A stretch of 64,000 nucleotides of DNA from positions 32,001-96,000 of the IMG/VR virus record IMGVR_UViG_3300045988_149331; one strand, 5' to 3'. Positions 6,379 through 64,000 of the stretch are shown piece after piece. The notes under the pieces are model-generated. The model was given only the letters and a program-made list of their open reading frames with translations, had not been told where the DNA came from and did not search any database. A program made the translations under genes and the position numbers. Position 1 is the first letter of the stretch, and each line of letters opens with the position of its first letter. Origin of the DNA: a virus.

Positions 6379-8136
6379 CTATTCGAACAACAGGGTTTCT
6401 GCCTTTTCGATCGACATTTCATCAACGTGGAGTGCGCCAAGATCAATCTCTTTGGCCTTCCACGTATCAGGGATCATGTCTTCAGCACCGAGTGTTTTGG
6501 CGCGACGCTTGATCCAGCGGCGAGCGCGTTCGGGGTTCTTAGCGTTGCCGGCGAGGCGGATGGCATTCTTCAGATCAGACTTGTTGCGGATCGGGAACGA
6601 GCCGTCGGGGAGGGCCTCCTTTTTCTTGGCGAGTTTATCGCGCTGCTCTTCGGTGAAATCGGCCTTTTCGAGCGATTCTGCGCCGTTAAGTAACTGCTCG
6701 GCCTTACTGATCGCGTCGGAGGTTTCGATCGGTTGAATGGCCTCATACGCGAGACTCTTCGTCAGCGCACGCACGGCACTCTTCTCCCACTCCTTTTGCT
6801 TCGCACCGATGAGGTTCGTCCACTCACCGCCCTGTTGGGCCATACGGTTAGAACGTTCCGTAGAGCGTTTTTCTGACAGAATGGTACCGAAAGTACGGGT
6901 GGTAAACTTGGCGGGATCGATCTTATCCTTATTCTTGACGATCAAATCGAACAGCTCTTGGCGTTCGGCCTTGTCCTCTTCAGGATCGTCAAGGTGAGGT
7001 GCCTGAGGTACGTCCATACTGGCGAATCGGTCTTTTAGTACCTCGATAGTTTCATCAACCGTCAGGTACACCTCCGACGAAAGCGTAGCGCGGCTGATGA
7101 TAGCTTTAGTATCTTCGTTCTTGGCGAGGTTCACCAAGTCCTTGTTGGTCATGATGATGATACGTCCCGTGAATACGAAATTCGACTTGACGTCTTCAGG
7201 GTCGCCGACGACGCGTTTACCACTGGCGGCAGTAGCTTTCTTCATGATAGAAGCCAGGTCGGCGCGGGTGATAACGGAATCGGTATCGTCGAACAGCAGA
7301 ATCTTGCCGTTGTGGGCCTTGAGTACGCCCAACAGCTGCTTCTTGGAGTTGATATCACCAAGTTCAACGTAGTCATAATCGCCGTCGCCAGGGGCGTCGG
7401 TCTCAGCGTCAAACGGACGCTTGTTGAGCAGTTCGGCGATCTTCTTGAAACCGTACGACTTACCAACGCCTGCGCCTCCGGCCGAGATCATGAAGCGTTG
7501 CTCCTTGTTGTCCAAGAACTCCAGATACTGGCGGTTCAGGTCGTACATTACCTCAACGGGCGGCTGGTAGTCGGGGTCCTTACGCTTCATCTTGTAGACG
7601 AAACGGTCGTAGGCGATACGGTCTTGGCGGTTCTGGAGTTTGTTGAATTTCTTCTGAACACGCGGGTCCTCGGGGTTGAGGAACCAGTCTTCCATAATCT
7701 CGCCATCGACGTTTTCACCTTCGCCGTCGTTAATATCAACCTTGTCTTGGGCGTTAGTAGGCGCAACGTCGTCCTGCTTGGAGGTCATCTTCAGCAGCGC
7801 GTCGAGTGTACCGGAGGTATCAACAGCCGAAGCGTCGAATTCGTCACGCGTCTTCAACTCCTCATAGGCAATCTTACGCAACTGCGCGTTGCCCTTGGGG
7901 TTGTTTACTACTTTGAGCAGATTGTCTGCGGAGGTACGCTTGGCCCACTCTTCAAGGCTGGCGGAACCGCCAGCAGAACCCGATTTACCTTCGTCGGCGG
8001 CAGGAGCCTTCTTGTTCTTGGCGTTTTTGTCGAGACGCCAGTTGAACTTTCCTGGCTTGTATTCGGTCCAAACCCACGGCTGTGTAGGGTGGTGGTCGCC
8101 GACGTTGTGTTTTGCTTTTTGGATAATGTCTGACAT
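6379..8136 (-). CDS. AAA+/P-loop ATPase with an N-terminal leader shared with the ART protein
   Basis: Walker A is ISAGGAGVGKSYGF, Walker B is KILLFDDTDS, and a sensor-1-like IIIMTNKD follows. The C-terminal module is DGSFPIRNKSDLKNAIRLAGNAKNPERARRWIKRRAKTLG. Confidence 0.65.
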   Translation of the reverse strand: MSDIIQKAKHNVGDHHPTQPWVWTEYKPGKFNWRLDKNAKNKKAPAADEGKSGSAGGSASLEEWAKRTSADNLLKVVNNPKGNAQLRKIAYEELKTRDEFDASAVDTSGTLDALLKMTSKQDDVAPTNAQDKVDINDGEGENVDGEIMEDWFLNPEDPRVQKKFNKLQNRQDRIAYDRFVYKMKRKDPDYQPPVEVMYDLNRQYLEFLDNKEQRFMISAGGAGVGKSYGFKKIAELLNKRPFDAETDAPGDGDYDYVELGDINSKKQLLGVLKAHNGKILLFDDTDSVITRADLASIMKKATAASGKRVVGDPEDVKSNFVFTGRIIIMTNKDLVNLAKNEDTKAIISRATLSSEVYLTVDETIEVLKDRFASMDVPQAPHLDDPEEDKAERQELFDLIVKNKDKIDPAKFTTRTFGTILSEKRSTERSNRMAQQGGEWTNLIGAKQKEWEKSAVRALTKSLAYEAIQPIETSDAISKAEQLLNGAESLEKADFTEEQRDKLAKKKEALPDGSFPIRNKSDLKNAIRLAGNAKNPERARRWIKRRAKTLGAEDMIPDTWKAKEIDLGALHVDEMSIEKAETLLFE

Positions 8137-8171
8137 ACGTTGTGCAGTTTTCCAGATAAATACTTGGAAAT

Positions 8172-8981
8172 CTACACCTCCACCGCGTCAAAGTCAATAT
8201 CAAATTTCTTGTACACAATTCGCAACTCCGGTACGCCGTTAATTGGCTTCTTCTTTTCGTCAATACGAGCGTTCAACGGCCAGCGCTTGAGTATGATGTC
8301 GTGCGCCCGCTGCACGCGCTCCTGGCGTTCGTATACGTCTTGGAGACCGCCGCCCTGGTTGGCTTCCTTGTTCATCTTACTCTGGAGAAGGAACCGCACG
8401 AACCGCGCGTAGACGATTCCCAGGTACATGCATTTCAACGAATAGTCGATGTCGCATTTCAACTCCAACTTTTCGTCAAAGTCCAGTTCCAGCGTCCGTA
8501 GCCCCTTGAAGACGATCAAGTGTGGAATACCGCCGTACTTGAAGCGCGGGCTGACGTCGGTACAACTCCAGTCGAAGGCGCTCTTGCCCATCGTTCCATA
8601 CTCAAAATCGGTTTCCATGACCTCGCGATCAAACTCCTCAAAGAACTCGCTGAGTTCTTCCGGCGTTTTCAACGACAGCCCACACTTGGCTTCACCGTCG
8701 ATCGAGTAGAAGAAGTTGGCGATGTCGTCATCCATCACCACCACCGGGTGGTTCTTGCGGAGGTAGGTGTTCTTGCAGAAATTTACCACGTAGCTGTAGC
8801 CGCGGTTCGAGGCCGGCAGCACAATCAGCCGCTCACGGGCGTGACCCGCTTCGACGTATTTTTCAACGTCCTCCTTTTCGACCACAATATTGTAGTCAAC
8901 GCCGCCCTTTTCCAACAGTTTAGTCGTGACGCACTTGGGGCGGTTCTTGGACACGACGAAGAATTGACAGTTCATACTCAA
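8172..8981 (-). CDS. GT-A-like glycosyltransferase-like protein (DxD type; resembles TET/JBP-associated glycosyltransferases)
   Basis: FFVVSKNRP...LIVLPASNRGYSYVVNF...PVVVMDDDIANF, followed by a late GGGLQDVY block. Same architecture as the paralog at 25887..26702. Its stop overlaps the upstream gene by 4 nt. Confidence 0.4.
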   Translation of the reverse strand: MSMNCQFFVVSKNRPKCVTTKLLEKGGVDYNIVVEKEDVEKYVEAGHARERLIVLPASNRGYSYVVNFCKNTYLRKNHPVVVMDDDIANFFYSIDGEAKCGLSLKTPEELSEFFEEFDREVMETDFEYGTMGKSAFDWSCTDVSPRFKYGGIPHLIVFKGLRTLELDFDEKLELKCDIDYSLKCMYLGIVYARFVRFLLQSKMNKEANQGGGLQDVYERQERVQRAHDIILKRWPLNARIDEKKKPINGVPELRIVYKKFDIDFDAVEV

Positions 8982-9658
8982 AAGGGTAATTCACCTTCGG
9001 ACCATATTTCCTCGGGTGGGTTTTGTTCTATGAAACGTTGATATTTGTCTATCGTAGGCTCCAGCGACGGGTAGAACCTAAAGGCAAGTTCCCACTTGAC
9101 GTCAAACATATCGTCGCACGGGACTTTGCGCTTCATCAACACATTTTCGTTGTTGTAGCACTGAATTGTGACTTGCTGACGGCCACGCGAAGTGTACGAA
9201 TAGGGAAAGTCGCGATAGTACTCAGCCAGCGAAACCGTATCTTGAACAACGTCGTGAATGAACTGATTGAAGGGGTGTCCCAGCCCCAACGGCGCCAATA
9301 CGGTATAACCACGGTTGCGTCGTAGGAAACGACGCAAATGGTCGCGAAGCGTTTGTTCGGCGAAATTAAGCGTGTCAGTTCCGTATTTAGTTCTGAGGTA
9401 CGTATAGACGCTGGAGAGATTAAAGTCCTTGAAATGGTCGCCAAAATCGCTACAAATCGCATCTTCGAACCCAGTGTCGAAGACATCCATCGTAATACCC
9501 ATGAATTCATAGAGCGATCGCTGTTCTACAACGCGGTTTGGGTCGCTATCTACAGTAAGCACCCGAACGTCATATTCGGGTGCTACTAAAACGTGACAAG
9601 CGCTCATCAGGAGATCACCCGCGTGAGGCTCGACACACAGGTACTTTATTTTTCCCAT
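8978..9658 (-). CDS. LmbE/PIG-L-like putative de-N-acetylase
   Basis: N-terminal YLCVEPHAGDLLMSA compares with the PIG-L AHPDDE block. The later LGLGHPFNQFIHD compares with the HPDH block. It is translationally overlapped with both neighbours. Confidence 0.4.
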   Translation of the reverse strand: MGKIKYLCVEPHAGDLLMSACHVLVAPEYDVRVLTVDSDPNRVVEQRSLYEFMGITMDVFDTGFEDAICSDFGDHFKDFNLSSVYTYLRTKYGTDTLNFAEQTLRDHLRRFLRRNRGYTVLAPLGLGHPFNQFIHDVVQDTVSLAEYYRDFPYSYTSRGRQQVTIQCYNNENVLMKRKVPCDDMFDVKWELAFRFYPSLEPTIDKYQRFIEQNPPEEIWSEGELPF

Positions 9659-10605
9659 GGCCGCTTGTAGATTTTCTCAGCGCAGGGGCCGTCTTTCGAC
9701 ACGTCCTCAGCCATCTTCCGGATTTCCGGCGTGATAGGCGGCAGCGTTTGCTTACCCATTTTGTCAGGCAGGAAGCCGACGCGGACGCTTACGTGCGTAC
9801 ACCCCTGACACGGGCGGAAGCGGCGGTCGTTGTTGTACAGCATGACACGGGCGGCGTGAAAGCGCGGGTGGTTCCACAGGTCTTCGATGGGCATGTCGTG
9901 GATGTTGGCGATTGGGTACTCACCGCGGAAGTCATCACAGCACAGACACACCTGGCCATTCCACCTCACGTCCAGTTCGCGGAACGGGAAGGTGCACCGC
10001 TTGTTGTTGAACGAATCGTCAAGCGGGAAGGCCGCGCCGCAGTGGTTGGCCAGGCGACGTGTCATCTTGTTGGTGTCGTCGTGGGCGATAGGCGGCAGCA
10101 AGCAGATACGACGGCCCTGCTTGGGGTAGTAGTACGGAACGCCGGGTTCCAGCGTCACGACGTTGTACTTATCAACATCGATCTTCTCGACGAAATTCCA
10201 GTCGCCGTTGGCCGTGTAGCAGTCCACCAGAATATCGTTCATACCTGCTCCGAACAGCGCGTCGAGGTACGCCTCGGTGTCTTCAGCGTGGTTCATGGCG
10301 TAACCGTTACTGTACATATGAAACACAGCCTTCGGCAAGTGCTTGCGGAACGTGGCGACGATGTCGATGAAGGCAGGATTCAGCGTCGGTTCGCCGTGCA
10401 TAGCGAACACGAACTTACAGTTCCAACCCACCCGCGCTACCTCCGAAGCAATACGCTCGGCCGTTTCGACGGTCATGAAATTCCAGGGCTTGGTCCCCTT
10501 TTCACGCATACCGTGTAAACCGCAGAACGAACAACCGAGGTTACAGCCCTCGGTAGGTTCAATCTGCATGGTAAACGGGGGGTCTTGTACGATTTTGTTT
10601 TTCAT
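9646..10605 (-). CDS. Radical SAM enzyme with a SPASM/twitch-like Cys-rich C-terminal domain
   Basis: CNLGCSFCG is a CX3CX2C motif, followed by a GEPTLNP block. The C-terminus carries CTFPFRELDVRWNGQVCLCCDD and RPCQGC. Confidence 0.75.
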   Translation of the reverse strand: MKNKIVQDPPFTMQIEPTEGCNLGCSFCGLHGMREKGTKPWNFMTVETAERIASEVARVGWNCKFVFAMHGEPTLNPAFIDIVATFRKHLPKAVFHMYSNGYAMNHAEDTEAYLDALFGAGMNDILVDCYTANGDWNFVEKIDVDKYNVVTLEPGVPYYYPKQGRRICLLPPIAHDDTNKMTRRLANHCGAAFPLDDSFNNKRCTFPFRELDVRWNGQVCLCCDDFRGEYPIANIHDMPIEDLWNHPRFHAARVMLYNNDRRFRPCQGCTHVSVRVGFLPDKMGKQTLPPITPEIRKMAEDVSKDGPCAEKIYKRPWEK

Positions 10606-11537
10606 TATTTTGTAACTTTAATGTTGAGTTTCACGTTCTTTAACTTTGGGTCTTTGAACTGACGCTTGACGGGCTTGGTGAAAGCGCGGGTTGCGGGGTC
10701 CCAATCGAAATTATCAGGCTTGTAATTAACCTGACACCGGCAGTAGGGGTGCGTCGGGTTAATCGTAGGGAGCCACTCTGCCGCCTTACGACCGATGTTG
10801 TTACCGTTAGCGATAAGGTCCGCCAAACGGAACAGTTTCGGTTTCGAGGTAGGGTCCTCGGGGTCTTCTAAGTACAACTCCCGGCACTTAGCGCACGCGC
10901 CTGGATAGACGTCGAAATACACTTTGGCGTCAGGCCCGTGTTGCTTGAAAATACTTTCAGCACGGCCCACGTTGTAGGCTTCGTGCAGGAGATAGTACGC
11001 AATACGCAGCCAATCGCGTCCCCAGTCTTGGGTAAGGTTTCCCAGTTCGCTGGCTACATAGCGCGCCCCCTTACGGAGTTGAACGGCTTGAATGGCCTTA
11101 TCTTTGATTTGCTGGCGTATAGCGGCCTGCTGACGGAAATTCGACTTGAGGATGGTGTTGCGTGTCCCGGTGACGATACGGTTGCCAAGCGATGTGATGT
11201 CGGTGTAGGCGCGGTTCTTGAGGTAATTGAGGGCGTTCTCTTCCTGTTCAGTGAGCGGTACAAAGTTTCCTGATTTCAAGAACTGAAGAAACTGTTTGTA
11301 GTTCATCTTCTTGGCGCGGGTATCGCCGATAGCCTCAGCCAAGATTCCAAACAGAAAGGCGTGTTCGATTATACCCTTAGAGTTCTTGTACTTATCGACG
11401 TTGACGCCTGACGCCACCAAGATGTCGATCTCCGACTGGGTCAGAAAATCCAATCCGACGTGCTTAGCAATAAACAGGTACTGCCAGCGCCGGAGAATAC
11501 CGACCATGTCGTCTATTTGGCGGTTATTGAAAATCAT
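10605..11537 (-). CDS. Head morphogenesis protein, Mu F / SPP1 gp7 family
   Basis: The C-terminal NPTHPYCRCQVNY matches the HPNCRC signature of MuF-like proteins. It lies downstream of the portal and is separated from it by nine intervening genes. Confidence 0.65.
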   Translation of the reverse strand: MIFNNRQIDDMVGILRRWQYLFIAKHVGLDFLTQSEIDILVASGVNVDKYKNSKGIIEHAFLFGILAEAIGDTRAKKMNYKQFLQFLKSGNFVPLTEQEENALNYLKNRAYTDITSLGNRIVTGTRNTILKSNFRQQAAIRQQIKDKAIQAVQLRKGARYVASELGNLTQDWGRDWLRIAYYLLHEAYNVGRAESIFKQHGPDAKVYFDVYPGACAKCRELYLEDPEDPTSKPKLFRLADLIANGNNIGRKAAEWLPTINPTHPYCRCQVNYKPDNFDWDPATRAFTKPVKRQFKDPKLKNVKLNIKVTK

Positions 11538-12175
11538 CAGTCTTCAGTGCTCCAAGAGCCGTCGTTTTTTAATTCCCTGGCTTTTGGTCCATCAGATACA
11601 GTCTTCTTGATACCATATTCCCCAGGGCGTTCGTTTTCTTCACTCCGTACCTTGTTCGCAGTTTCCGCCGCTTTTTGATACGAACCACTCTTTACCTTCC
11701 GTAACAAACGAATGTCTTCTATCTTTATGGAATTTGGATATTTGCCCCCTATTTTGTTAACAAGTCCGTCTATTTTCACCTCAAAGCTATCGCCATCGCG
11801 GCTAACTATCTTCCCAACTGAATATGAATGATAACCGGAGCCGTTATTAACATGAACAATTACGACATCGCCATGGCTTAAATCGGAAGGTTCAACCTCG
11901 TGTCCTGAATTAAAATCCTCAACGGTGTACTGGTACAGTTTCTTGTTAGGTAATTTAATTGGCTTGAACTTAGGTTCTTTGTAAGGCATCCCAACGCGCC
12001 CTAATTTCCGATTTTCAGACGTGTCGGCGTATCGCCCGGTCTTCGAACGGGCTTTCTCCAACGCATCGCCGTCGGTTAGGTTTCCTTCAAAAGCACCTAT
12101 GGCTTTACACAAGTGGTCGTGGCGATATTGATTGGCTTCATGAAATGCCCTCGTCACTTCATCTACTACTCCCAT
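11537..12175 (-). CDS. Hypothetical virion-module protein with an NRKLGRVG leader motif and an SH3/Tudor-like segment
   Basis: EKARSKTGRYADTSENRKLGRVGMPY is shared with the ART protein. The segment GDVVIVHVNNGSGYHSYSVGKIVSRDGDSFEVKIDG looks SH3/Tudor-like. Confidence 0.6.
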   Translation of the reverse strand: MGVVDEVTRAFHEANQYRHDHLCKAIGAFEGNLTDGDALEKARSKTGRYADTSENRKLGRVGMPYKEPKFKPIKLPNKKLYQYTVEDFNSGHEVEPSDLSHGDVVIVHVNNGSGYHSYSVGKIVSRDGDSFEVKIDGLVNKIGGKYPNSIKIEDIRLLRKVKSGSYQKAAETANKVRSEENERPGEYGIKKTVSDGPKARELKNDGSWSTED

Positions 12176-12678: not shown

Positions 12679-12850
12679 CTTCCTTTAATTCTTTTACCGC
12701 CGCAGCCGTAGCGTCGGCGATGTATTTTAGTACATCGCCTAACGCAGCGGCGTTGTTGGCGTTCCATTCGCGGATAAACCGATCTTCGTACTGAGTAACG
12801 GTGGGGAATGGCGACGGCAAAAAGTGGGTATGTTTGGCGTTGTAAGGCAT
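12632..12850 (-). CDS. Small hypothetical protein, start coupled (TAATG) to the ART gene stop
   Basis: 72-aa ORF. Its ATG shares base 12850 with the TAA stop of the ART gene. Confidence 0.45.
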   Translation of the reverse strand: MPYNAKHTHFLPSPFPTVTQYEDRFIREWNANNAAALGDVLKYIADATAAAVKELKEDGPKKNNLGRVSSEG

Positions 12851-14604
12851 TACTCTTGTTTGCTATCTTCCGGCAACCATTCCATTAAGACACGATTTCC
12901 TTCAATCTTATGGACCTTATAATTTTGGTCTCGGCCAATTAAAAATTCCCCCTCCTCTCCTCCGTAAACCCCTACTACTGGAGCAACCGGGCAACCCGCG
13001 GGAGCGATAATATCAAAATACATAGTCCCCTCGTCGTTGCTAATTTCAGGATAACATGTAGTGCTCATGAACGACTTATCGCTGAACACCTCCCCCTCCT
13101 TGAGATTTTTAACGAAATTATCTGCATCGTTTTCAAACGTAAGTTTCCTGTATAAAACGATATTTTGTCCCACTTTATTTTGAGAAATAAACGTATCAAT
13201 TCCGTTTATGAATTTATCCATTTTATCAGACGATACATCGACTTTGTTGCCGTAAAGGTATTTTCTCATTACAGCAAAGTCAAGATCATCATCTTCGTCA
13301 AAATCGTCATCATGGTCTGCGGAATATAAAACAATAGCTTTTACTGCATCCGAATCGCTTTCGTCCATGAAATCCTCATAAGCGTCAACAATCTTATCAA
13401 AGAATTCAGTTGCATCGTCGCTGTTTAATCGTATGAATTTTTCGCCGTTTATGTCCAACCCACTTTTCCGTAAAGCCCATTTGTACGCTCTATCGGCCTT
13501 TTTGAGAACTTTTTCATTCGCCTTGTCAGAGGGTAATCGCTCAATGTTTTTCGCAGTACTGTCGCCTGATAATGAAATATTAAAACGTTCATTATCTGCT
13601 TCAAATTTCTTTTGTTCTTCTGCTTTTTCCCTTTTAACATCCTCGCTTTTTACCCAAAAAGCGATAGCGTCGTCTTTTGTGTCTTCAGGCACGATATTAT
13701 TTCTTTTCAAGACATCAATCGCCTTTTTAGATAATTCTTCGGGGGTTAATTTATACTTTGAATACTGTTCGTCGGTCTTTCGTAATTTACTCAAAAAGAT
13801 GCCAGCTATCGTCTTTGGTGTATCGCTACCTCGTACTTGATCCAGCAAATCTTTTTCGAATTTCTCATCAACGGCATCTTCGTCTTTATTGTCGTCATCC
13901 TTTTCACTACCCTCCCTGGCGTCAGGATCGCCGAACTTGGACGCGGCTCCCTCGACGTCAGCGATCTCCTTCACCGTCGTGGTCTCGAAATTGTCAACAT
14001 CGGCGTAGGGGTATTTGTCCACGCGGTAGCCTTCGCTGGTCTTGGTGACTACCAGATCGAAGCCGTCTTCGTCGCCGCCGACCTGCTTGATGAACGCGTG
14101 AGAAGCGTCTTCGACTCCAGCGTACTGCTCCAGGTCCTGGTCGTCCATCTGACGGAAGCCCATGGACTCAAACGAGGCCGTCGCCTTGGCGTCACCGTCA
14201 GCCAGGCCGTTACGCAACGAGGCGTCGCCCTTCTTGTTCTTGGCGCGAACGTTCACGCCGCGGCGTTCGAGTTCTGCGGTGGCCACCTTGCGCATTTCAG
14301 CGTCAGCCGACGGATCGTTAGCCACTTTCACCAACGCCTCCTCCGAAGCCGAGCGGGCATGATTCTGGAGGCTGACGTTGCCTCCGGGAACGCCACCTTC
14401 ACCCCCCTCAGCCGCGGGGTCTTTCTCCTTGGCTGCGTGACCGTACTCCTGACCCACACGTTGCAAGCGGCGGTTTTGAGCGTTGTCGGTGTATACACCG
14501 TGACGCGCTTTTTCGATTTCTACCTCTTCAGTTTCGGGGATGTTGACGAACCCCTTGAGGATTTGCTGTCGTTTTGCCTCACCGTAGTTGATAATCTCTT
14601 TCAT
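12850..14604 (-). CDS. ADP-ribosyltransferase (R-S-E class) with a long N-terminal leader/linker
   Basis: C-terminal domain reads VLYRK (R), SFMSTTCY (STS-like) and GGEEGEFLIGR (ExE). The N-terminus has GVYTDNAQNRRLQRVGQEYG and a HEAT-like segment shared with the AAA+ protein. Confidence 0.7.
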   Translation of the reverse strand: MKEIINYGEAKRQQILKGFVNIPETEEVEIEKARHGVYTDNAQNRRLQRVGQEYGHAAKEKDPAAEGGEGGVPGGNVSLQNHARSASEEALVKVANDPSADAEMRKVATAELERRGVNVRAKNKKGDASLRNGLADGDAKATASFESMGFRQMDDQDLEQYAGVEDASHAFIKQVGGDEDGFDLVVTKTSEGYRVDKYPYADVDNFETTTVKEIADVEGAASKFGDPDAREGSEKDDDNKDEDAVDEKFEKDLLDQVRGSDTPKTIAGIFLSKLRKTDEQYSKYKLTPEELSKKAIDVLKRNNIVPEDTKDDAIAFWVKSEDVKREKAEEQKKFEADNERFNISLSGDSTAKNIERLPSDKANEKVLKKADRAYKWALRKSGLDINGEKFIRLNSDDATEFFDKIVDAYEDFMDESDSDAVKAIVLYSADHDDDFDEDDDLDFAVMRKYLYGNKVDVSSDKMDKFINGIDTFISQNKVGQNIVLYRKLTFENDADNFVKNLKEGEVFSDKSFMSTTCYPEISNDEGTMYFDIIAPAGCPVAPVVGVYGGEEGEFLIGRDQNYKVHKIEGNRVLMEWLPEDSKQE

Positions 14605-17942: not shown

Positions 17943-18200
17943 TTAGCGTGAATATAGGTAGGCGGTACGGTCGTCCCAAACGAAATTGAAACTCATATCC
18001 CCTTGAGGATATTCCGTGATGGTAATGCCGTTGGCGGTTGTTTCACGTTCGATACGCCAGCCCGGCTCTCCCTGGCCTGTGCCGATAGGGGCATATCCGC
18101 GATACACGGTCCCCTCAGTGGAAGCGTCGATGATAGGCTTCGGCATGGCCTCCGAAAGCAACTGCACGATGGGTGCAGTATTCTTCTCGTTACTCGTCAT
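17943..18200 (-). CDS. Small hypothetical protein downstream of the portal
   Basis: 85-aa ORF overlapping the portal stop by 11 nt. Confidence 0.5.
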   Translation of the reverse strand: MTSNEKNTAPIVQLLSEAMPKPIIDASTEGTVYRGYAPIGTGQGEPGWRIERETTANGITITEYPQGDMSFNFVWDDRTAYLYSR

Positions 18201-19993: not shown

Positions 19994-20317
19994 TCAACCC
20001 AACATTTTCAAAATGTCGTTGCAGGCCGTTTTCCTGATTATCAACGCTTGATGAACGATATCTCCCCACACCGCCAACTGATGACCGCGCCATGAGTAGT
20101 AGTCGGTTTGGTCATCGTACGAACCTTGCCACTCGCCTTCGCTGCGTATAGTAGCCACCAAACGGCGAAATGCTCGCTGTTCGTCGGTAGTGAGGGGTGA
20201 TATAAAAGTGCCGACGACTACTAATCGTGCGGCACTCGTTGTTAGATCATCGGCTAACGTTTGAAAGTTAATGCCCATGAACTCACCTGTCTCTAATGGG
20301 GTATGAAAAGTTATCAT
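19994..20317 (-). CDS. Hypothetical protein
   Basis: 107-aa ORF with a 4-nt overlap with the upstream gene. Confidence 0.55.
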   Translation of the reverse strand: MITFHTPLETGEFMGINFQTLADDLTTSAARLVVVGTFISPLTTDEQRAFRRLVATIRSEGEWQGSYDDQTDYYSWRGHQLAVWGDIVHQALIIRKTACNDILKMLG

Positions 20318-21324
20318 TCGCCAACCAATTTTACAGTTCGTGGTTCAAAAGTAGAGCGTTGCTTACCTTCACCGATGCGCATCTTCCAGTATTTTTGATA
20401 TTCACACAACCACATCTCGATCTGGTGAAGGGTTATATTGCCGTGAGGCGTTGTGTAATATCCTGCTTCGAGTTTGTGCCAGTGTAGGTACGGAAAATCT
20501 CCAAATGTCGCCAACGCCACCTGCGCTTCATCACGCAGACGATAGATACCGTCAATTTGACGTTTCAACGACGGGAATATTAACCGCAACCCAATCGACG
20601 CCCCAGGCCCCACGTTAGTGTAGTCATCCTGAGTGAAACGCATGAAACGCCGATATGTATATCGCGGTATATAGGTGAAATCTTGATAGAATTCGTGAGC
20701 GATGAATGCAGCCGATGACGGAAGCCCCTGAAGGAACTTGATGATCTGTTCAGGAGTTTGGGCCGTAAATACCATCTTGATGAGTTCACCCAAGCGACGG
20801 TGTAACGTAGGCACTACCAGATGGGTGTAACAGTAATCACGCGGTTTACCCGGCGTGGCCATGGAATTGATGAGATATGCCGTGGTGTAGGGGTTGTTCC
20901 CCGAAGCGCGGTACGACGTTATCATCTCTGCAAAAGCGTCTTCGTCGTAGCTGTCGTAATCTGGAATACCAGCGCCCCAGCCATACTTATCGCGAGCGTA
21001 TTCAAAAGTACTGGGGTTGTTGAAATACCGGAACACCATCATCTTCCACACCAAGCTGGCTAACGACAATGAATCATCCAACAGAATATTTCGAATTTGC
21101 CACTGGGAATTTCGATCCAGTTCGCGGTACACGTTAGTGAACTTGTAGTCGCGCAAAATAGGGTCTTCAGTCCAGGGGCGTGGTTGGTGATCGATGAAAC
21201 GTCGTTTCCAGATCATTTGCCGCTCAAACATCGTGCGAAAGAACTCCGTGCGGTGTTCGTCGCTCACGTCAAGCGTATCAGATGGGAGTTTGTCACTCCA
21301 AGAATAGTGATCAAAGTTTGCCAT
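20314..21324 (-). CDS. Putative DNA base hypermodification enzyme, alpha-glutamyl/putrescinyl-thymine pyrophosphorylase (aGPT-Pplase)-like
   Basis: MIWKRRFIDHQPRPWTEDPILRDYKFTNVYRELDRNSQW matches my memory of the PWT.DPIL..Y.F.NVYRE.DR block of this family. The later AFIAHEFYQDFTY block also fits. This needs an HMM check. Confidence 0.5.
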   Translation of the reverse strand: MANFDHYSWSDKLPSDTLDVSDEHRTEFFRTMFERQMIWKRRFIDHQPRPWTEDPILRDYKFTNVYRELDRNSQWQIRNILLDDSLSLASLVWKMMVFRYFNNPSTFEYARDKYGWGAGIPDYDSYDEDAFAEMITSYRASGNNPYTTAYLINSMATPGKPRDYCYTHLVVPTLHRRLGELIKMVFTAQTPEQIIKFLQGLPSSAAFIAHEFYQDFTYIPRYTYRRFMRFTQDDYTNVGPGASIGLRLIFPSLKRQIDGIYRLRDEAQVALATFGDFPYLHWHKLEAGYYTTPHGNITLHQIEMWLCEYQKYWKMRIGEGKQRSTFEPRTVKLVGE

Positions 21325-21625: not shown

Positions 21626-21711
21626 ATAACTAAAAAACGTTGGCCCCGAAACGCTTACTGAATCGAGGCCGCGGTCCTAACTAACCTTGGAAAATGGAAA
21701 CAGAAAAGAAA

Positions 21712-22383
21712 CTAAAACCCGAACACCGTCAGCTGTCGAGGCGACAATTGATAGCGTTCGTTGTCGGAAAGATTAGTCTCGAGAATTTCACACGCCTTGA
21801 TGTCGGTAGCGACATTGGCGTACTCACGGACCTTATCGTTGTACTCCTGGCGGCACTTACGCATTTCGGGAGTAACAGGGTTCTCCTGCTCTTCGCCGGC
21901 AATGAGCGATCCTGCAACTTTAGGACCTTCACAGAGGTCGCATGCCTGCCACGAGAAGATGCGGAACGGAAAATCCATCTTGATCTCCGCAGTCCACCAG
22001 GGCGGAACGGTCTCGGTAGGAGCCCCGCCGCAGTCTTCGAGTTTGCTCTCGATTTCAGCCGTCAGGACTTGGAGTTTAGCGTTCAGCGGCGGAAGAATAT
22101 CGGCCTTCAGTTTAGCCTTGATTTCCTTGCCCAGTTTGCCGAACTTGATGTTAGAATCGTAGCTGATGGCGTTCATGATGTCCGATTTCTCGATCTCGCC
22201 CTGAAGAGCCACGTCGCTATCGCCGGACTCAGCCTTTTCGATAGCCCCGGCCATCTTCTCGAAAACGTTATCAGCCTTTTCGACCTTTTCCTCAGGGTCT
22301 TCGGAAACCGGAGCGAAGCCCTTCAGCATGTGCTCTTGACGCTCAGCGCGAACGCCAAGAATGATATCACGAATGTTTTCCAT
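21712..22383 (-). CDS. Hypothetical acidic protein
   Basis: 223-aa ORF. The antisense +ORF 21694..22425 is rejected as a shadow. Confidence 0.55.
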   Translation of the reverse strand: MENIRDIILGVRAERQEHMLKGFAPVSEDPEEKVEKADNVFEKMAGAIEKAESGDSDVALQGEIEKSDIMNAISYDSNIKFGKLGKEIKAKLKADILPPLNAKLQVLTAEIESKLEDCGGAPTETVPPWWTAEIKMDFPFRIFSWQACDLCEGPKVAGSLIAGEEQENPVTPEMRKCRQEYNDKVREYANVATDIKACEILETNLSDNERYQLSPRQLTVFGF

Positions 22384-22567
22384 CGCTCACTTCGGTTTTT
22401 GCGGCTCGCGCCTTTACGTAATTAACCCACGCCCAGTGTGCCACCACGCCCGCCGTGAACGAGCCAATAGCCACCAACGTGTGAATGATCTTCGCCTCAT
22501 GGGCGTACACTACCGCAGCCACGACAAGCGCGACAACGATAATAAGAATCCACATCCATTTCTTCAT
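22367..22567 (-). CDS. Small two-TM membrane protein
   Basis: The two hydrophobic segments are WMWILIIVVALVVAAVVYA and LVAIGSFTAGVVAHWAWV. Confidence 0.5.
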   Translation of the reverse strand: MKKWMWILIIVVALVVAAVVYAHEAKIIHTLVAIGSFTAGVVAHWAWVNYVKARAAKTEVSDGKHS

Positions 22568-24482: not shown

Positions 24483-24758
24483 TTAACAATCCATCACTAA
24501 ATTTCCCGCCAACTCCAACTCATACAACCGTTCAGCATCAGGCTTGGCGTAACAGAATATCAACTTTCCACCGCCCGCAGCCCGCAACGCTTTACGATAC
24601 GTCGCCTTGATGCGGGCCAACTCTTCGCTTCGGTAAAAATCGTAGTCGCTTACACACAACTCCCACCACCGCTCTTGCCGCGACGCCCAGGCTATGACTC
24701 CTGGGCGTTCGGCTTCAATCCGCTTTACAGCAGCTAATAACAGCGCGTCGTGTTTCAT
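24483..24758 (-). CDS. Hypothetical protein
   Basis: 91-aa ORF with a 4-nt overlap with the upstream gene. Confidence 0.5.
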   Translation of the reverse strand: MKHDALLLAAVKRIEAERPGVIAWASRQERWWELCVSDYDFYRSEELARIKATYRKALRAAGGGKLIFCYAKPDAERLYELELAGNLVMDC

Positions 24759-25344: not shown

Positions 25345-25890
25345 CTATTTGGTTTCAGGTTCTTGGCTCTTGACGGTCGATCCCCATCCTGCTTCGCCGC
25401 GAGCGCTGGGCGTGAGTTCTTCGACGAGTGTAGGTTCAATCAACGGCGCAGGCACAATCACCAGCTGAGCAACGACGTCGCCCTTCTTGTACGCCTTACA
25501 TTCGTACGACAGCTCCCGCATTTTGAAGTCGGCGATAGTCCCTAAGACGTTGGAGAACAACACCGCCAAACACCGCGACATACGCTGCCACAGCGTGGGC
25601 ATGTGATAGATCTTTTTGTAGCGTACCAGCATCTCGCCACGGTACCCCGGGTCGATAATACCCGGCGCGTTACACATCACCAGGTCCATCTTCGACACGC
25701 GCGAGTTGGGGACCAGCAACCCGCTGTACCCTTTGGGAATTTCAACGGCGATTCCCGTCTGGTACTCGATGAAATCTTCGGTTTCGCGTACTCCAACGGC
25801 TACCAGGTCCAAGCCGTTATCCTCGCCATCGGCGTGGGCATACGCCGGCAACGTGGCGTTGGGGTTGAGTTTCTTGAATTTTACGTTCAT
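25345..25890 (-). CDS. dut: Trimeric dUTPase-family enzyme with an insertion between motifs III and IV
   Basis: The five motifs are NGLDL, PNSRVSK, GIIDPGYRGE, GDVVAQLVI and RGEAGWGST. About 35 extra residues (KKIYHMPTLWQRMSRCLAVLFSNVLGTIADFKMRELSYE) sit between motifs III and IV. Confidence 0.7.
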   Translation of the reverse strand: MNVKFKKLNPNATLPAYAHADGEDNGLDLVAVGVRETEDFIEYQTGIAVEIPKGYSGLLVPNSRVSKMDLVMCNAPGIIDPGYRGEMLVRYKKIYHMPTLWQRMSRCLAVLFSNVLGTIADFKMRELSYECKAYKKGDVVAQLVIVPAPLIEPTLVEELTPSARGEAGWGSTVKSQEPETK

Positions 25891-26702
25891 TTCTTGTATC
25901 CTTTTAAGTGTATTTTGACCTCGATCATCTCACGGTCCTTCATTTCACCACCCCAGTTGGTACACTTTTTGGTACGGAGGGTGATGTACTCGGGGAACGC
26001 TTCTCTTAAACGTTGTGATTCGGCGTTGGAGTTCTCGATCGTACGATAAATCGAACAACCACCAGCGGCGTTGGCTCCCGTCATTTTGTCGAACGAATAC
26101 TGATACGAGACGATATTATCCAACCCCGCGCGGCGTAATCCACACGCCACGGCGAAATCCTCCTTTATGGGCCAATCGCTGAACCTGACAGGCTGACTTA
26201 GATACTGGGCGATATTGAGGCCCCAAATGGAGAAGAACCGCCCGTTTATTTGTACGTCGTGTTCCTTGTCGCGGTTGAACGGACGGTATGAAAGCGCAGC
26301 CACGGCGTAGGTGTCTAACTGCTCAGCCACCCAGTCGAACATCATCTGGTAGATGTATTCCTGCGCCTCGACGGTGAAATTGTCGTTGTTTACGACCACA
26401 GGGGTCTTGGCATCGTCTAAACGCAACGAGAAAGACACGTTATCGTCTAAGAAAAAGACTCCTCCAAATCCCCTATCAACGGCCTCTACAACAATATAGT
26501 CCCGTATGTCCCCCACGCCGCGACACGCCGTACTGTATTCCTCGATACTGGCTACTTTTCCACCCCAGTTGCGCTGGTGAGCCGCCAACTCGCCGGGGTG
26601 ACAGAATATGTGGACGCGCTTCAACGCTTCAGGCGTCAACCGTTGAAGAGTTTTTTGGCGGTCAACACGACCTCGTGTGAATAAGGCTATCAGAGTTTTC
26701 AT
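25887..26702 (-). CDS. GT-A-like glycosyltransferase-like protein, paralog of 8172..8981
   Basis: ALFTRGRVDR...GVGDIRDYIVVEAVDRGFGGVFFLDDNVSF and the late AAGGCSIY block. Same block order as the other copy. Confidence 0.4.
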   Translation of the reverse strand: MKTLIALFTRGRVDRQKTLQRLTPEALKRVHIFCHPGELAAHQRNWGGKVASIEEYSTACRGVGDIRDYIVVEAVDRGFGGVFFLDDNVSFSLRLDDAKTPVVVNNDNFTVEAQEYIYQMMFDWVAEQLDTYAVAALSYRPFNRDKEHDVQINGRFFSIWGLNIAQYLSQPVRFSDWPIKEDFAVACGLRRAGLDNIVSYQYSFDKMTGANAAGGCSIYRTIENSNAESQRLREAFPEYITLRTKKCTNWGGEMKDREMIEVKIHLKGYKK

Positions 26703-54569: not shown

Positions 54570-54642
54570 GATAAGGTTTAGTTAAAACGGCTGGCCAACT
54601 CGTAAGCCAGCCAGCCGCGGGAAAATGATGGAAACGCAGGAA

Positions 54643-57614: not shown

Positions 57615-58274
57615 TTAAATGATATTTTTTAATAAATCGATGATATCATCCTCCGACGCGTACAGCGAATGCGACGTAGTGCAAATACCCATCTCAATGC
57701 ACGTATTTCGTAACGTTGAAACTGCCTTATAGTAGTTATCCTTACAGTAGGGCAGCAAGTTTAACGGCCATGAACGGTTGCCGATAGCCAATTCGCGGTT
57801 CAAAAAGTACAGCAGCGCCATCCAGTCTGCTACTTTCACAATAGCGTGCATCACGTCGTAGAACTTATCCTCTTTGGAGAACATTTTGACCACTTCGGAT
57901 TCCTCGCCAAACTCTTCCGTCAACTGGTGGTTAACGAACTTATCAAGCACGTTTCGGATTTCGCCGCCGTTGTAGTTGTTGTACTTGAGTTCGTGGGTGA
58001 TATCGCGGCGCAGAATGGCTTCGTCGAAGTCGTGCATCAACGCCAGTTTCAGCGTCTGGTATTTGAATAACCACACTTCGGCGCGTTGTGTGTCAGACGG
58101 CCACAAATATTCCAAGAGGCTCATCGCGAAGACCGAAACCTTAAACGAATGTTGTGACACGCTTTCCTGCTGGTGGCGGTCGTATTCCAACCACTGCTTG
58201 ATGTTATCCAACCGCGCCAAATAGTCACGGTTGAATAGCTTTATCAAATCTCCTTTGTTTCCTTTGTTTTCCAT
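57615..58274 (-). CDS. HD-domain phosphohydrolase, YfbR-like 5'-deoxynucleotidase
   Basis: QESVSQHSFKVSVFAMSLL supplies the His and LALMHDFDEAILRRDITHE supplies the HD..E motif. Start moved to MENKGNK (58274). Confidence 0.5.
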   Translation of the reverse strand: MENKGNKGDLIKLFNRDYLARLDNIKQWLEYDRHQQESVSQHSFKVSVFAMSLLEYLWPSDTQRAEVWLFKYQTLKLALMHDFDEAILRRDITHELKYNNYNGGEIRNVLDKFVNHQLTEEFGEESEVVKMFSKEDKFYDVMHAIVKVADWMALLYFLNRELAIGNRSWPLNLLPYCKDNYYKAVSTLRNTCIEMGICTTSHSLYASEDDIIDLLKNII

Positions 58275-58288
58275 ACGATTTTGTTTTA

Positions 58289-61132
58289 CTACTGTAGTAT
58301 TTCTAACCTTGTAGATGGACACGACTGGATGACCTTCTTGCCCGCAAAGAAATTAACGCGTCCTGATACAGCCACAACTCGGTTCAGCAGCGTCGCTTCA
58401 GTTTCAGGCTGGTATTTCCAAAAGTCAGCCCACAACGTGACTTGAACGATAAGGCTGTTGATTTCTACCTGCAATACGCCATACGTATCACCCCGCTTGG
58501 TTTGACGTTCGAATACGTTGTTAACACGCCCCACGATACACACCTCGTCACCTTCGTTTTTCTTCTCGAATTCAGGCGCAGTAACGTACAGCCGAACCAT
58601 CCGTTTTCCGAGACCATACTCGTTCAACATACGCGTGTAGTCCACTTCGCCATACCCGGTTATTTCGCGCTGTTTGAAGACCCACCAAGCGTTAGTATGG
58701 GCATCGGGAGTAGCGAATTCTTCAGGCAGTTCTTCGCCCCGGCGTTCGAGATATTGTTTGACGATATCTAACCGTTGACGCGGGTTGCGTACTCCTTCTA
58801 CAAGGTCGAACGCTCCGGCTGTTATCAACCGTAATACCACCGTGCGATTAACGCCCGTAGGGACTGACGTTATGAAGTCTTCGAAAGAAAACACCTCGCC
58901 GTGCTCAGCCTTCATTTGTTTGAGGAGCGTCAACGCCCGATCGCCGACGCCTTTAACCTTCCCCAGTGAGAAGAAGATACGATTGGTTTCAGGGTCGCAG
59001 GTAAACGTATCGCCCGAGAAATTGATATCCGGCGGACGCACCTCAATATCGACACCCGTCTTCTTCATTTCAACAAGCCGATACGGAATATCAGCCTCTT
59101 TGGAAGCGTACTGAAGCGACGTCGTCCAAAACTCCAACGGGTAGTTCACCTTAAACCACTGCGACCAGTACGACATCATGGTATAGGCCACGGCGTGAGA
59201 ATTACACGTTACCACACCACCGTCAGTCAAAAACGTGTGTGACACGTTGCCGCTCACCTCCACGTCATAGACTTTTTCTTCACCTACGCACTGAATATTG
59301 ACGATTTCTTCCAATCGTGTTAACAATCCCTTTTCACCCATTCGGTGACGCGGTAGCGTTTCAAAGTGGATTTTCTTATGACACGAATTACAGAGCCACA
59401 TCAGGTTGCTAACGTCATTATTCGCCCGATTCCCATCCATATGATGAGCCTCCATGCGTTTTCCCACTTTGCCGCACTTATCACACGGGCATCCGGCGTG
59501 TTGGCGTTTGAAATTTTCAAAGTCAACGGTGGGATGATATTCTTGACGCTGGAATCCGCACTGACCCTTCGTAGGATAGTTTTGAGACCTACCACGTTGG
59601 AACGAATAATCCTTATTCGTTTCTTCGTATCCAGCCCAGATATACAATCGAGCACCAACTGCCAAACCGCTATCTATAGACATTTCACCCGCCGGTGTCG
59701 GGAAGCGGTGATTAGACGTACAGCGTATCTTTTCGCCGGAACGTACAGTGATTTCGTAAACCGGACGCACACCTTCAAAACGGATGTCAACGATTTTATT
59801 ACGAACCAACCTGCCTTCGTCGTTTAACGACCAGCACATTCCGTACCCTGAACGAATATACTTATCGCTTAACGATTCGTGAGATAGCCATAAATCAGAC
59901 GTGCGATTCTTTATTTCGTACATCTCTTCGATAGTGGGAGCATACGAACCGCGCGTAATACCTACGCGACGAATACGTTCCGAACCTGCCAAGCACTTAT
60001 TGAAGCCGTACGAAGCGAACGCCAGCATCTTCTCCCAGACTTCAGAGGCTTGTTCAACGGCTCGTTTTTCCGCAACTCCTTTTGATTTTATCAAATTGGA
60101 ATATCCGTTAACGAACTTTTCCTTGAATTGAGCTAAGGCTGTGTGATTCTTTTTCTTAATGTACGTACGACACTCGTCGGATTCGATAGGCGTTAAACCT
60201 CCAACAACCATCGCTTTCATGATCTGCTCCTGGTAGGTGTACAACGAATAGGTATCACGAGTGATATCCTCCATCCCGGGGTCAAACTTTGGCTTCTTGC
60301 GGCCGTTCTTTATATCGACAAACGTTTCGTGCGCCTTCACATCCATCGGGCCTGGTCGGAACAGTGCCGTCATAGCGATTAGGTCGTCGAGACTTTGAGG
60401 TTTAGCCTCGCGACAGTAATTCATCAGTCCCATGGCTCCAAACTGGAATACGTCTTCACACCACCCACGCTGGAAATAACGGTAAACCTCTTCGTCGTTG
60501 AACGGAATGGCGTTAACGTCGATTTGCTCCCGACGGTTCTTGGCGATAAGTTTGATAATAGACGAGAACTTATCCAGCTGGTTAAGACCCAATATGTCCT
60601 CCTTCAAGAATCCGGACTTGTCAACATACTTGCCTTCCCACTCTGATACAAGCACATCGCCCATTTTCTTCATAGGCATCCACCCAAACAAGTCGATCGG
60701 GTTTCCATCCTCATCTTCCTGCGGTACAACAATGACCGCTGAGGGATGAATTGACGACGTTTTACACTGCGTAAGGGCGTATTTCGTCATATGGACCAAC
60801 TCGGGGTGATCCTGCACAAAACGGAACAATTCACGCGATGTAGCTGCGTAGTTAAACAAGTCACCCCACGTGTACTCGATTTGGTCGTCGATGTCCTTGG
60901 TGAGTTTGTTCATTACCGCGAACGGCACGCCCATGACCTTGCCGAAATCCTTCAAACATGTCTTGAGTTTCATGCGGGTGTACGTACCAACAGAGCACAC
61001 ATGATTGACGCCATAGCGTTTGGACATGTATTCCTTCACTGTATCCCGAAATGCAACAGGGAAATCGGCGTCCACGTCCGGCATGCTGTCCTGACGGGCA
61101 ATTTCGACTTTTTCTATTTTTAGAATCTTCAT
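58289..61132 (-). CDS. dnaE: DNA polymerase III alpha (DnaE-type), C-terminal piece, containing an intein
   Basis: SMPDVDADF carries the catalytic Asp pair, with FRPGPMD and YGFNK|intein|SHAVAY further on. The ATG at 61132 overlaps the TGA of the GIY-YIG gene (ATGA). An alternative upstream ATG is at 61159. Confidence 0.8.
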   Translation of the reverse strand: MKILKIEKVEIARQDSMPDVDADFPVAFRDTVKEYMSKRYGVNHVCSVGTYTRMKLKTCLKDFGKVMGVPFAVMNKLTKDIDDQIEYTWGDLFNYAATSRELFRFVQDHPELVHMTKYALTQCKTSSIHPSAVIVVPQEDEDGNPIDLFGWMPMKKMGDVLVSEWEGKYVDKSGFLKEDILGLNQLDKFSSIIKLIAKNRREQIDVNAIPFNDEEVYRYFQRGWCEDVFQFGAMGLMNYCREAKPQSLDDLIAMTALFRPGPMDVKAHETFVDIKNGRKKPKFDPGMEDITRDTYSLYTYQEQIMKAMVVGGLTPIESDECRTYIKKKNHTALAQFKEKFVNGYSNLIKSKGVAEKRAVEQASEVWEKMLAFASYGFNKCLAGSERIRRVGITRGSYAPTIEEMYEIKNRTSDLWLSHESLSDKYIRSGYGMCWSLNDEGRLVRNKIVDIRFEGVRPVYEITVRSGEKIRCTSNHRFPTPAGEMSIDSGLAVGARLYIWAGYEETNKDYSFQRGRSQNYPTKGQCGFQRQEYHPTVDFENFKRQHAGCPCDKCGKVGKRMEAHHMDGNRANNDVSNLMWLCNSCHKKIHFETLPRHRMGEKGLLTRLEEIVNIQCVGEEKVYDVEVSGNVSHTFLTDGGVVTCNSHAVAYTMMSYWSQWFKVNYPLEFWTTSLQYASKEADIPYRLVEMKKTGVDIEVRPPDINFSGDTFTCDPETNRIFFSLGKVKGVGDRALTLLKQMKAEHGEVFSFEDFITSVPTGVNRTVVLRLITAGAFDLVEGVRNPRQRLDIVKQYLERRGEELPEEFATPDAHTNAWWVFKQREITGYGEVDYTRMLNEYGLGKRMVRLYVTAPEFEKKNEGDEVCIVGRVNNVFERQTKRGDTYGVLQVEINSLIVQVTLWADFWKYQPETEATLLNRVVAVSGRVNFFAGKKVIQSCPSTRLEILQ
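59201..59995 (-). mobile_element. Intein (265 aa) with an HNH endonuclease domain in DnaE
   Basis: It starts CLAGSERIRRVG. Block B is CTSNHRF and the HNH motif is EAHHMDGNRANNDVSNLMWLCNSCHKKIH. It ends GGVVTCN with Ser as the +1 residue. Boundary codons were checked at 59993-59995 (TGC) and 59201-59203 (AAT). Confidence 0.8.
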
Positions 61133-63573: not shown

Positions 63574-63990
63574 CTACAAAATTGTATTCGGGTCCGCGTT
63601 AGATAACCTTGCCGCGAAGAAATTGCGCGCCAGCATTAGGTAGTCCCAACGCGCATCGACTTGATAGTAACTCGGCATATAATCGATGATCGAGATACTG
63701 CTTTTCAACAGCTGATCGCGATCCTCCGGCAGGCACCCACCGCGATTACGCTTATAGGAGATGTACGCCTTCAACAACTGATACACGGCCGAAAAATATA
63801 TCGACTTTTCATGGACGTATCGCTGGAATCCAGCCTCGTCTTCTGGATCGCCACCGTCGGCGTTACGGTTGAGCAGACGGGTGATCATCTCCTCCAGGAA
63901 TACAGTTATTTCACGCAGGCGGTTTACCGGCACCTCGGACTCGAAATCAAAGTCCATCATGTACGAAATAGCTTCGTTGTAAAGCCCCAT
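63574..63990 (-). CDS. Hypothetical protein
   Basis: 138-aa ORF whose stop lies 1 nt from the dnaE-N start. Confidence 0.55.
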   Translation of the reverse strand: MGLYNEAISYMMDFDFESEVPVNRLREITVFLEEMITRLLNRNADGGDPEDEAGFQRYVHEKSIYFSAVYQLLKAYISYKRNRGGCLPEDRDQLLKSSISIIDYMPSYYQVDARWDYLMLARNFFAARLSNADPNTIL

Positions 63991-64000
63991 TTGTGCCGAA

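Follow-up and report, generated by a model that had tools for sequence, protein, structure and literature searches.

Whether a given host nuclease, CRISPR system or glycosylase can attack a phage depends on the hypermodifications of its DNA, and the study of phage DNA modification has supplied tools such as the T4 beta-glucosyltransferase (beta-GT) and the TET-type enzymes. Sugars carried on 5-hydroxymethylcytosine (5hmC) are well known. Phage glycosyltransferases attach hexose, N-acetylhexosamine (HexNAc) or heptose to this base, and the clusters encoding them can adjoin structural genes (Pyle et al., 10.1101/2023.12.21.572611). The described systems include the MT/5mYOX/ThyS + GT clusters that Pyle et al. 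found in metaviromes, the alpha/beta-GT of T-even phages and the characterised member of the TAGT (TET-associated glycosyltransferase) family, the T2/T6 beta-glucosyl-HMC-alpha-glucosyltransferase, which adds a second glucose to glucosyl-5hmC and belongs to a family with a predicted GT-A fold (PMC13216743). A second route, the hypermodification of thymidine, combines the kinase 5-HMUDK with aGPT-Pplase2 or an amino-acid:DNA transferase (AADT) and with tailoring enzymes dependent on pyridoxal phosphate (PLP), FAD or radical S-adenosylmethionine (radical-SAM) chemistry (Lee et al., PMC5889632, PMC8989533). In kinetoplastids, JBP1/2 and JGT produce base J, a glycosylated 5-hydroxymethyluracil (5hmU), while glycosyltransferases, LmbE-fold N-deacetylases and twitch radical-SAM dehydrogenases occur in the pathways of butirosin (BtrM/BtrD/BtrN) and teicoplanin (Orf2*/Dbv21) and in the MshA/MshB and BshA/BshB pairs.

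Here we analyze a cassette of three enzyme genes in a window of 64,000 nucleotides (positions 32,001 to 96,000 of IMG/VR record IMGVR_UViG_3300045988_149331), in which minus-strand genes of a phage of about 99 kb, common in the human gut, follow one another. Placed between a MuF-like head-morphogenesis gene and genes for cargo-like proteins, the cassette encodes a BtrN-like radical-SAM enzyme of 319 aa whose C-terminal domain is of the twitch/SPASM auxiliary-cluster type (9646..10605, minus strand), a 226-aa protein of predicted LmbE/PIG-L fold with a degenerate active site (8978..9658, minus strand), and a glycosyltransferase of the TAGT family (PF20691), hereafter TAGT1 (8172..8975, minus strand; 267 aa from ATG, or 269 aa from a TTG at 8981). 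On balance, we favor the view that this cassette is expressed late and serves to assemble and modify a glycan on the DNA of the phage itself, most likely with 5hmU, in place of thymine, as acceptor.

By analogy, the cassette may be likened to the T-even and metavirome DNA-glycosylation clusters, extended by tailoring enzymes of aminoglycoside or glycopeptide type. It shares with these clusters the PF20691 family, a thymidylate-synthase (TS) homolog as likely maker of the precursor, a location next to structural genes such as some of them have, and the late, post-replicative action proposed here, HexNAc being a known appended sugar. Unlike them, it would act on 5hmU rather than 5hmC, is not accompanied by alpha/beta-GT, and has in addition an LmbE-fold protein and a twitch radical-SAM enzyme of BtrN type; since no TET was found among the proteins of the window, we do not regard it as a TET/GT cluster. 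Looking for terms in the main text of 10.1101/2023.12.21.572611 brought up neither 'deacetylase' nor 'radical SAM', radical-SAM-like neighbors appearing there only as 'viperins'. With the thymidine pathway of Lee et al. the phage has in common a homolog of the helical domain of 5-HMUDK, a TS resembling dUMP hydroxymethylases, nucleotide-pool enzymes, and the principle of post-replicative tailoring, which in that pathway too can involve a radical-SAM enzyme acting on the DNA-linked group. However, neither its P-loop kinase nor its amino-acid:DNA transferase was found in the window, and we therefore do not count the cassette as a member of that pathway; moreover, the group predicted here is a sugar, not an amino acid, and the radical-SAM enzyme of M6 (gp53) is spore-photoproduct-lyase-like rather than twitch/SPASM, which rules out a gp53-like isomerase as the identity of the window enzyme.

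The pathways of aminoglycoside and glycopeptide tailoring provide the same logic and folds, at only 14-20% identity; in contrast to them, the genes here lie in a phage late operon, a polymer (DNA) is the probable substrate, the general base and one zinc ligand are missing from the LmbE-like protein of the window, and the radical-SAM gene is not followed by one for an aminotransferase. Base J offers the precedent of glycosylated 5hmU in DNA and of a GT-A enzyme related to phage DNA glycosyltransferases, but 5hmU would here be made before replication through the TS homolog and its sugar tailored further, in a bacterial host. We found no description of phage DNA modification combined with LmbE in the literature searched, nor any of the present combination of enzymes, in agreement with the initial annotation of this DNA, which knew of no such phage system. 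If the proposal is correct, DNA-linked glycans would be acted on by an N-deacetylase of LmbE fold and a radical-SAM enzyme resembling BtrN, for which no report was found in the same literature, and an amino or radical-tailored sugar on 5hmU would be new chemistry and give both enzyme families a class of substrate new to them. Given the abundance of the phages that carry it, the modification could also bias sequencing and restriction-based virome work.

Conservation and organization of the cassette

All three open reading frames (ORFs) proposed in the initial annotation are present on the minus strand, downstream of the MuF-like gene that forms the conserved upstream anchor of the cassette (10605..11537, minus strand, 310 aa). 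The MuF-like protein has no Pfam match and carries a C-terminal ...HPYCRC... motif, read from the sequence; in some relatives its gene contains an intein. Two of the three overlaps claimed between these genes can be read directly, one of 1 nt between the MuF-like and radical-SAM genes (TAATG at 10605) and one of 13 nt between the radical-SAM and LmbE-like genes (ATGGGAAAAATAA at 9646-9658). The third, of 4 nt between the LmbE-like and TAGT1 genes (8978-8981), exists solely with the TTG start; the ATG at 8975, used in the gene calls on contigs with an identical LmbE-like protein, leaves a gap of 2 nt. The overlaps are consistent with a single late transcript, as had been argued, but single out no unit, because overlaps are commonplace in this genome (29 of the 68 neighboring gene pairs of the window, with 10 more at most 10 nt apart), and we discarded them as the mark of a special unit. 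A promoter/terminator scan gave no signal above that of shuffled sequences.

The identical LmbE-like protein occurs on 22 contigs of ~98-100 kb from human gut and other metagenomes, all with the same trio, and its clusters comprise hundreds of member sequences. More distant relatives were represented by 80 IMG/VR loci and several contigs obtained from protein look-ups, and partner genes were counted in the 77 loci that extend at least 2.5 kb to either side, corresponding to 37 clusters at 90% identity. A MuF-like homolog is present in 90 of the first 92 loci and, where present, always lies upstream of the LmbE-like gene, either adjacent to it or with only the radical-SAM gene or small inserted genes between. 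A glycosyltransferase partner of the LmbE-like gene is found in all 77 loci, being a putative GT-B enzyme of ~483 aa in 62, a TAGT in 14, and in one (L089) a fused TAGT that was missed by local search and revealed by Pfam. In the window clade, where the ~483-aa protein has no homolog, TAGT takes its position. Because the partner is universal and the radical-SAM gene present in only 36 of the 77 loci (about 45%), the stable core consists of the glycosyltransferase and the LmbE-like protein, and the radical-SAM enzyme and methyltransferases are optional tailoring modules. The trio thus does not co-occur as the unit initially assumed: what is conserved after MuF is the pair, mostly with the ~483-aa partner rather than TAGT.

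Gene fusions tie the same components together. A radical-SAM::LmbE fusion (P0015) is followed by a 475-aa partner, LmbE::TAGT fusions occur in P0022, P0019 and L089, and a related phage of 97.8 kb (L138) has two consecutive pairs (LmbE-TAGT-LmbE-TAGT, 7001-9993) after an FkbM-type methyltransferase, suggesting that the pair is a duplicable module. Other genes found in this slot encode FkbM-type methyltransferases, N6_N4 DNA methylases (L011 and L026), an InPase and numerous homing endonucleases of the GIY-YIG type. The InPase gene (PF18823, 1.6e-47; L016, 6405-6977) separates the MuF-like from the radical-SAM gene in one relative, and in some others a gene of the crAss001_48/Sequestin family (PF21825) intervenes between the MuF-like gene and the LmbE-like gene (L017, 5894-6283; L139, 2242-2661). 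A megablast search with positions 8100-11600 gave no match in the INPHARED phage collection, and exact-sequence look-ups returned no record for four other window proteins or for the close LmbE-like relative P0005.

Families and predicted folds of the three enzymes

TAGT1 matches PF20691 over nearly the whole profile (5.3e-13, 49.8 bits against a cut-off of 27.5; residues 7-207, profile positions 3-203 of 205) and phrog_842 at 1.1e-16, and its stretch VVVMDDDIANF contains, as read from the sequence, a DDD (DxD-like) motif. A search for further homologs yielded close relatives only and no new context, and tblastn against phages gave no match for either TAGT1 or the LmbE-like protein. Between the window and a 98.8-kb relative of identical gene order (L141), TAGT1 has a dN/dS of 0.019 and the radical-SAM gene one of 0.031. 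Judged by genomic context (the TS homolog, the HMUDK_hel protein described below and the fusion beside Tet_JBP in L089), the acceptor of TAGT1 would be hydroxymethyl-pyrimidine DNA, either bare or with a first sugar in place.

The radical-SAM enzyme matches the Pfam models Radical_SAM (PF04055; 1.8e-15, 58 bits, cut-off 29.5) and SPASM (2.6e-12, 47.3 bits). Its CX3CX2C motif (C21/C25/C28) is invariant in 32 homologs of 47-67% identity, as are five further cysteines (C204, C222, C223, C266 and C269). The seven-cysteine SPASM motif that binds two auxiliary clusters is not found; five invariant C-terminal cysteines suffice for one, hence the assignment of a twitch arrangement, as in BtrN. BtrN is also the best PDB match by sequence (1.4e-8), with the C-terminal cysteines paired in the HMMER alignment, and by far the top Foldseek match (4m7t; E 1.3e-12, TM 0.81 on target, rmsd 3.7) of an AF2 model with pLDDT 80.9, followed by anSME, PqqE and EpeE and by the sugar-tailoring enzymes SpeY, DesII and BlsE. 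By resemblance to BtrN (20% identity), the enzyme may oxidize a secondary alcohol of an aminocyclitol or sugar, and a sugar-tailoring character is further suggested by these structural neighbors and by the FkbM-type methyltransferases of the slot. Among phages only weak N-terminal matches were obtained, to radical-SAM proteins of Campylobacter phages. One of these, phage IBB35 (records HM246722/NC_041831), encodes both radical-SAM proteins of this kind and an LmbE-like protein (BFVD H6SUJ6) that is a structural match to that of the window.

The LmbE-like protein itself has no match in Pfam (including PF02585), PHROG or NCBIfam, and a search of the PDB with its profile was equally negative. An exhaustive profile search started from it recovered 87 family representatives, of which the distant members P0080 and P0078 match PF02585 PIG-L at 3.7e-16 and 2.6e-7, providing a transitive link, and the family consensus contains PHSDD and GxGHPxH, the motifs of LmbE. 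The AF2 model (pLDDT 93.5) has as its top PDB match by Foldseek the teicoplanin GlcNAc-pseudoaglycone deacetylase (2xad; E 4.7e-8, TM 0.62), and its structural matches in BFVD are viral proteins named PIG-L or LmbE-like, so that the predicted fold is the Rossmann-like one of the LmbE/PIG-L deacetylases. The families guessed in the initial annotation are therefore borne out, Radical_SAM/SPASM and TAGT by Pfam and LmbE/PIG-L by relatives, motifs and predicted fold, with Foldseek, which had been suggested as a check, upholding both assignments to which it was applied (radical-SAM and LmbE-like); the analogy which that annotation drew with aminoglycoside pathways also holds, and better than expected, BtrN ranking first for the radical-SAM enzyme by sequence and structure, and 2xad for the LmbE-like protein.

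DNA as the probable acceptor and competing explanations

Genomic context favors hydroxymethyl-pyrimidine DNA as the substrate, one of the two candidates of the initial annotation. Next to the TAGT precedent, one pointer is the unrelated contig L089, on which the LmbE::TAGT fusion and the beginning of a Tet_JBP oxygenase gene (1.7e-11) overlap, the fusion following a ParB_N gene and adjoining the terminase, without MuF context; ParB-dependent phage thymine dioxygenases that yield 5hmU have recently been described (PMC13229309). Further reasons are the DNA methylases that share the slot and a TS homolog of which the C-terminal part lies at the end of the window (63577..64000, minus strand; 408 aa in full, running past the window; phmmer 1.6e-92 to L095:8773-9999). 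This homolog matches Pfam Thymidylat_synt (1.7e-22, full length in L095), has the catalytic cysteine and, at the base-specifying position, a uracil-type asparagine, and shares 29-35% identity with gp51 of PaMx11 and the TS of Nachito. In the window its gene lies directly upstream of the split DnaE, and it is present upstream of DnaE in 40 of 40 related loci; genes for TS, LmbE-like protein and glycosyltransferase occur together on seven contigs. It is a likely dUMP hydroxymethylase.

The window also encodes, all on the minus strand, four proteins that argue in the same direction. A 336-aa protein (20314..21324) consists over its whole length of HMUDK_hel, the helical domain of 5-hydroxymethyldeoxyuridine (5-hmdU) DNA kinases (PF18723, 3.9e-51, residues 26-320), has no P-loop domain, and is a homolog of PaMx11 gp50 and of the Nachito 'aGPT-Pplase clade 1' protein (tblastn, annotations and phmmer). 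A second, very divergent TAGT-family glycosyltransferase of 271 aa (TAGT2, 25887..26702; Pfam TAGT 1.1e-12), without BLASTP similarity to TAGT1, is located between the terminase large subunit gene and a gene for a 181-aa dUTPase/dCTP-deaminase-like protein (25345..25890; Pfam dUTPase 2.3e-9, NCBIfam dut 3.3e-20, the latter below its cut-off), possibly a pool-shaping enzyme. A YfbR-like HD-domain 5'-deoxynucleotidase of 235 aa (57615..58322; Pfam 1.4e-13) may likewise shape the dTMP/dNMP pool; no similarity was detected to the HD protein gp52 of PaMx11. TAGT2 has homologs in isolated phages, including gp22 of PhiJL001, in which HMUDK_hel, TAGT, Nmad5 and a dUMP-hydroxymethylase-like TS are clustered.

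Taken in sequence, the TS homolog would make 5-hydroxymethyl-dUMP, to be built into DNA at replication. Late in infection, alongside head assembly, TAGT1 would move a hexose or N-acetylhexosamine from a nucleotide sugar to the hydroxymethyl group, or to a sugar set earlier by TAGT2, which could add either the first or the second sugar; such a timing would agree with PMC13326640, in which groups are transferred to DNA hydroxyls late, in the run-up to packaging. Across the family as a whole, the LmbE-fold partner would then remove the N-acetyl group to leave an amino sugar, and the BtrN-like enzyme, where present, would abstract a hydrogen from the DNA-linked sugar, converting a secondary alcohol to a ketone or epimerizing it. 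DNA treated in this way would carry a bulky and perhaps cationic adduct, protecting it against nucleases of the host. More tentatively, with the chances somewhat against it, we propose that this abundant family of phages of ~100 kb, from human gut and other metagenomes, has an amino- or keto-sugar of tailored structure on its thymidines, an 'aminoglycoside-like base J' made on the DNA polymer by an LmbE-fold N-deacetylase and a BtrN-like twitch dehydrogenase or epimerase, in which the glycosyltransferase/LmbE pair acts as a modular, duplicable unit adding successive sugars.

Several observations weigh against a DNA-linked glycan on 5hmU. The assignment of the substrate rests on genomic context throughout, and the fixed position of the cassette between MuF and cargo-like proteins would equally suit a virion protein as target. 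The TS homolog may be an ordinary thymidylate synthase, as sequence cannot here separate hydroxymethylases from methylases, and TS homologs can yield other bases, such as 5-hydroxycytosine. No P-loop 5-hmU kinase and no aGPT-Pplase2/AADT was found by Pfam or phmmer within the window, or in about 10 kb of the roughly 35 kb of the genome that lie outside, unlike in PaMx11 and Nachito, where a separate kinase and aGPT-Pplase2 lie near HMUDK_hel, and no window protein has a Pfam match to Tet_JBP; the kinases, aGPT-Pplase2, TS and HD proteins of PaMx11 and Nachito, used as phmmer queries against all window ORFs, matched the HMUDK_hel protein only. A 223-aa ORF upstream of the HMUDK_hel gene, considered as the missing P-loop kinase by comparison with Nachito, was rejected for lack of similarity. 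The usual ~483-aa partner of the LmbE-like protein is only tentatively a GT-B glycosyltransferase, on the strength of weak matches (Glyco_transf_4 at 0.001 and Glycos_transf_1 at 0.035; E 0.001 to 0.04) and of an N-terminal GGI and a C-terminal NGFIIEAMxxGxYPV motif, and it has no tblastn match in phages and none in the PDB, even with a 13-sequence profile. The two remaining points concern the LmbE-like protein of the window, in which the general-base aspartate and the third ligand of the zinc triad are missing and which evolves under relaxed constraint.

These last points underlie the rival that survives best, although we judge it rather unlikely overall: the phage would indeed make a DNA glycan, but in this clade the LmbE-like protein would be a pseudoenzyme, a structural or substrate-presenting partner of the glycosyltransferase, the radical-SAM enzyme or both, the chemistry being limited to glycosylation and radical tailoring. 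About 80% of the family have PH[SAP]DD...GHPxH (consensus PHSDD...GHPFH), as opposed to PHAGD...GHPFN in the window (P-H12-A-G14-D15 ... G-H128-P-F-N131). In what we take to be the corresponding positions of MshB (zinc triad H13, D16 and H147, general base D15), the general base is replaced by glycine and the third ligand by asparagine. Close relatives, in clusters of 43 to 354 sequences, have in addition lost H12 (H12Q in P0005) or H128 (H128Q/N in P0004 and P0007), and the more degenerate copy of P0030 (PHSGE, no HPxH) is still kept beside a putative GT-B and a radical-SAM gene. Between the window and L141 the LmbE-like protein shows 73% amino-acid identity and a dN/dS of 0.21, against 95-97% and 0.02-0.035 for MuF, radical-SAM and TAGT, and it thus evolves 6-10 times faster than its neighbors. 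On the other hand, the window copy still has H12, D15 and H128, a His135 conserved in the clade and placed, in the alignment, one helical turn past Asn131 could replace the lost zinc ligand, the fold is predicted with high confidence, and a dN/dS well below 1 indicates that the protein is still under selection in the window clade. With the general-base aspartate and a zinc-ligand histidine lost and the protein evolving fast, canonical zinc-dependent deacetylation appears doubtful in this clade, and with it the de-N-acetylation step of the initial annotation for this phage; the window protein is probably either an enzyme of weak or non-canonical activity or, with no catalysis of its own, a partner of the glycosyltransferase.

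An improbable alternative is that the cassette glycosylates a virion or ejected protein, such as the capsid, MuF or the large downstream cargo-like proteins, so as to change the surface or protect the cargo. It would account for the invariable placement of the cassette between the MuF-like gene and the cargo-like genes p585 and p793 in more than 90 loci, and for the nearby cargo-like protein with an ADP-ribosyltransferase domain, and mycobacteriophages provide a precedent for virion glycosylation by phage-encoded glycosyltransferases near structural genes. A location beside structural genes has, however, already been reported for DNA-glycosylation clusters (10.1101/2023.12.21.572611). Further, the characterised TAGT member works on DNA, the LmbE::TAGT fusion by Tet_JBP and ParB_N lies away from MuF, the slot is common to DNA methylases, and the TS homolog is found family-wide, all of which argues for DNA rather than protein as the target. 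Very improbable, finally, is a role of the glycosyltransferase/LmbE pair in making a small glucosamine metabolite or remodeling a host envelope glycan, in parallel to MshA/MshB, BshA/BshB or BtrM/BtrD, where a free aminocyclitol or sugar would serve the radical-SAM enzyme as substrate in the manner of BtrN: a GT4-like and an LmbE protein are paired exactly as in MshA/MshB and BshA/BshB, the ~483-aa partner has weak GT4 signals and BtrN is the nearest structure of the radical-SAM enzyme, but the Pfam matches of the window include no cysteine ligase, aminotransferase, inositol-phosphate synthase or 2-deoxy-scyllo-inosose synthase, the glycosyltransferase of this clade is a TAGT, and the Tet_JBP-adjacent fusion, DNA methylases and TS homolog point to DNA here as well.

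Other features of the genome

The genome is dense in selfish elements. The terminase large subunit (26722-29442) contains an intein with a LAGLIDADG domain, and DnaE (58289-63572) is split by a GIY-YIG gene (61129-61881), its C-terminal part carrying an intein with an HNH domain; a further GIY-YIG gene lies at 55911-56678. In some relatives (L003, L005, L008 and L010, 7054-9054) the MuF-like gene encodes 666 aa, including an intein and DUF559.

The head and cargo block includes a 584-aa protein (12850-14604, minus strand) with a C-terminal ADP-ribosyltransferase exoenzyme domain (2.2e-9), possibly an ejected effector, and a ferritin/rubrerythrin-like protein is encoded at 24755-25342 (minus strand), beside the genes for the dUTPase-like protein and TAGT2. 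In two places a pair of long ORFs overlaps almost completely on opposite strands, 54625-55935 (plus) with 54643-55914 (minus) and 21694-22425 (plus) with 21712-22383 (minus); in both, the minus-strand member alone fits the gene orientation of the window. The portal protein (18190-19956, minus strand) has its nearest isolate homolog in Chryseobacterium phage MA9V-3 (42% identity), with SPO1-like Herelleviridae next, which hints at a host among the Bacteroidota.

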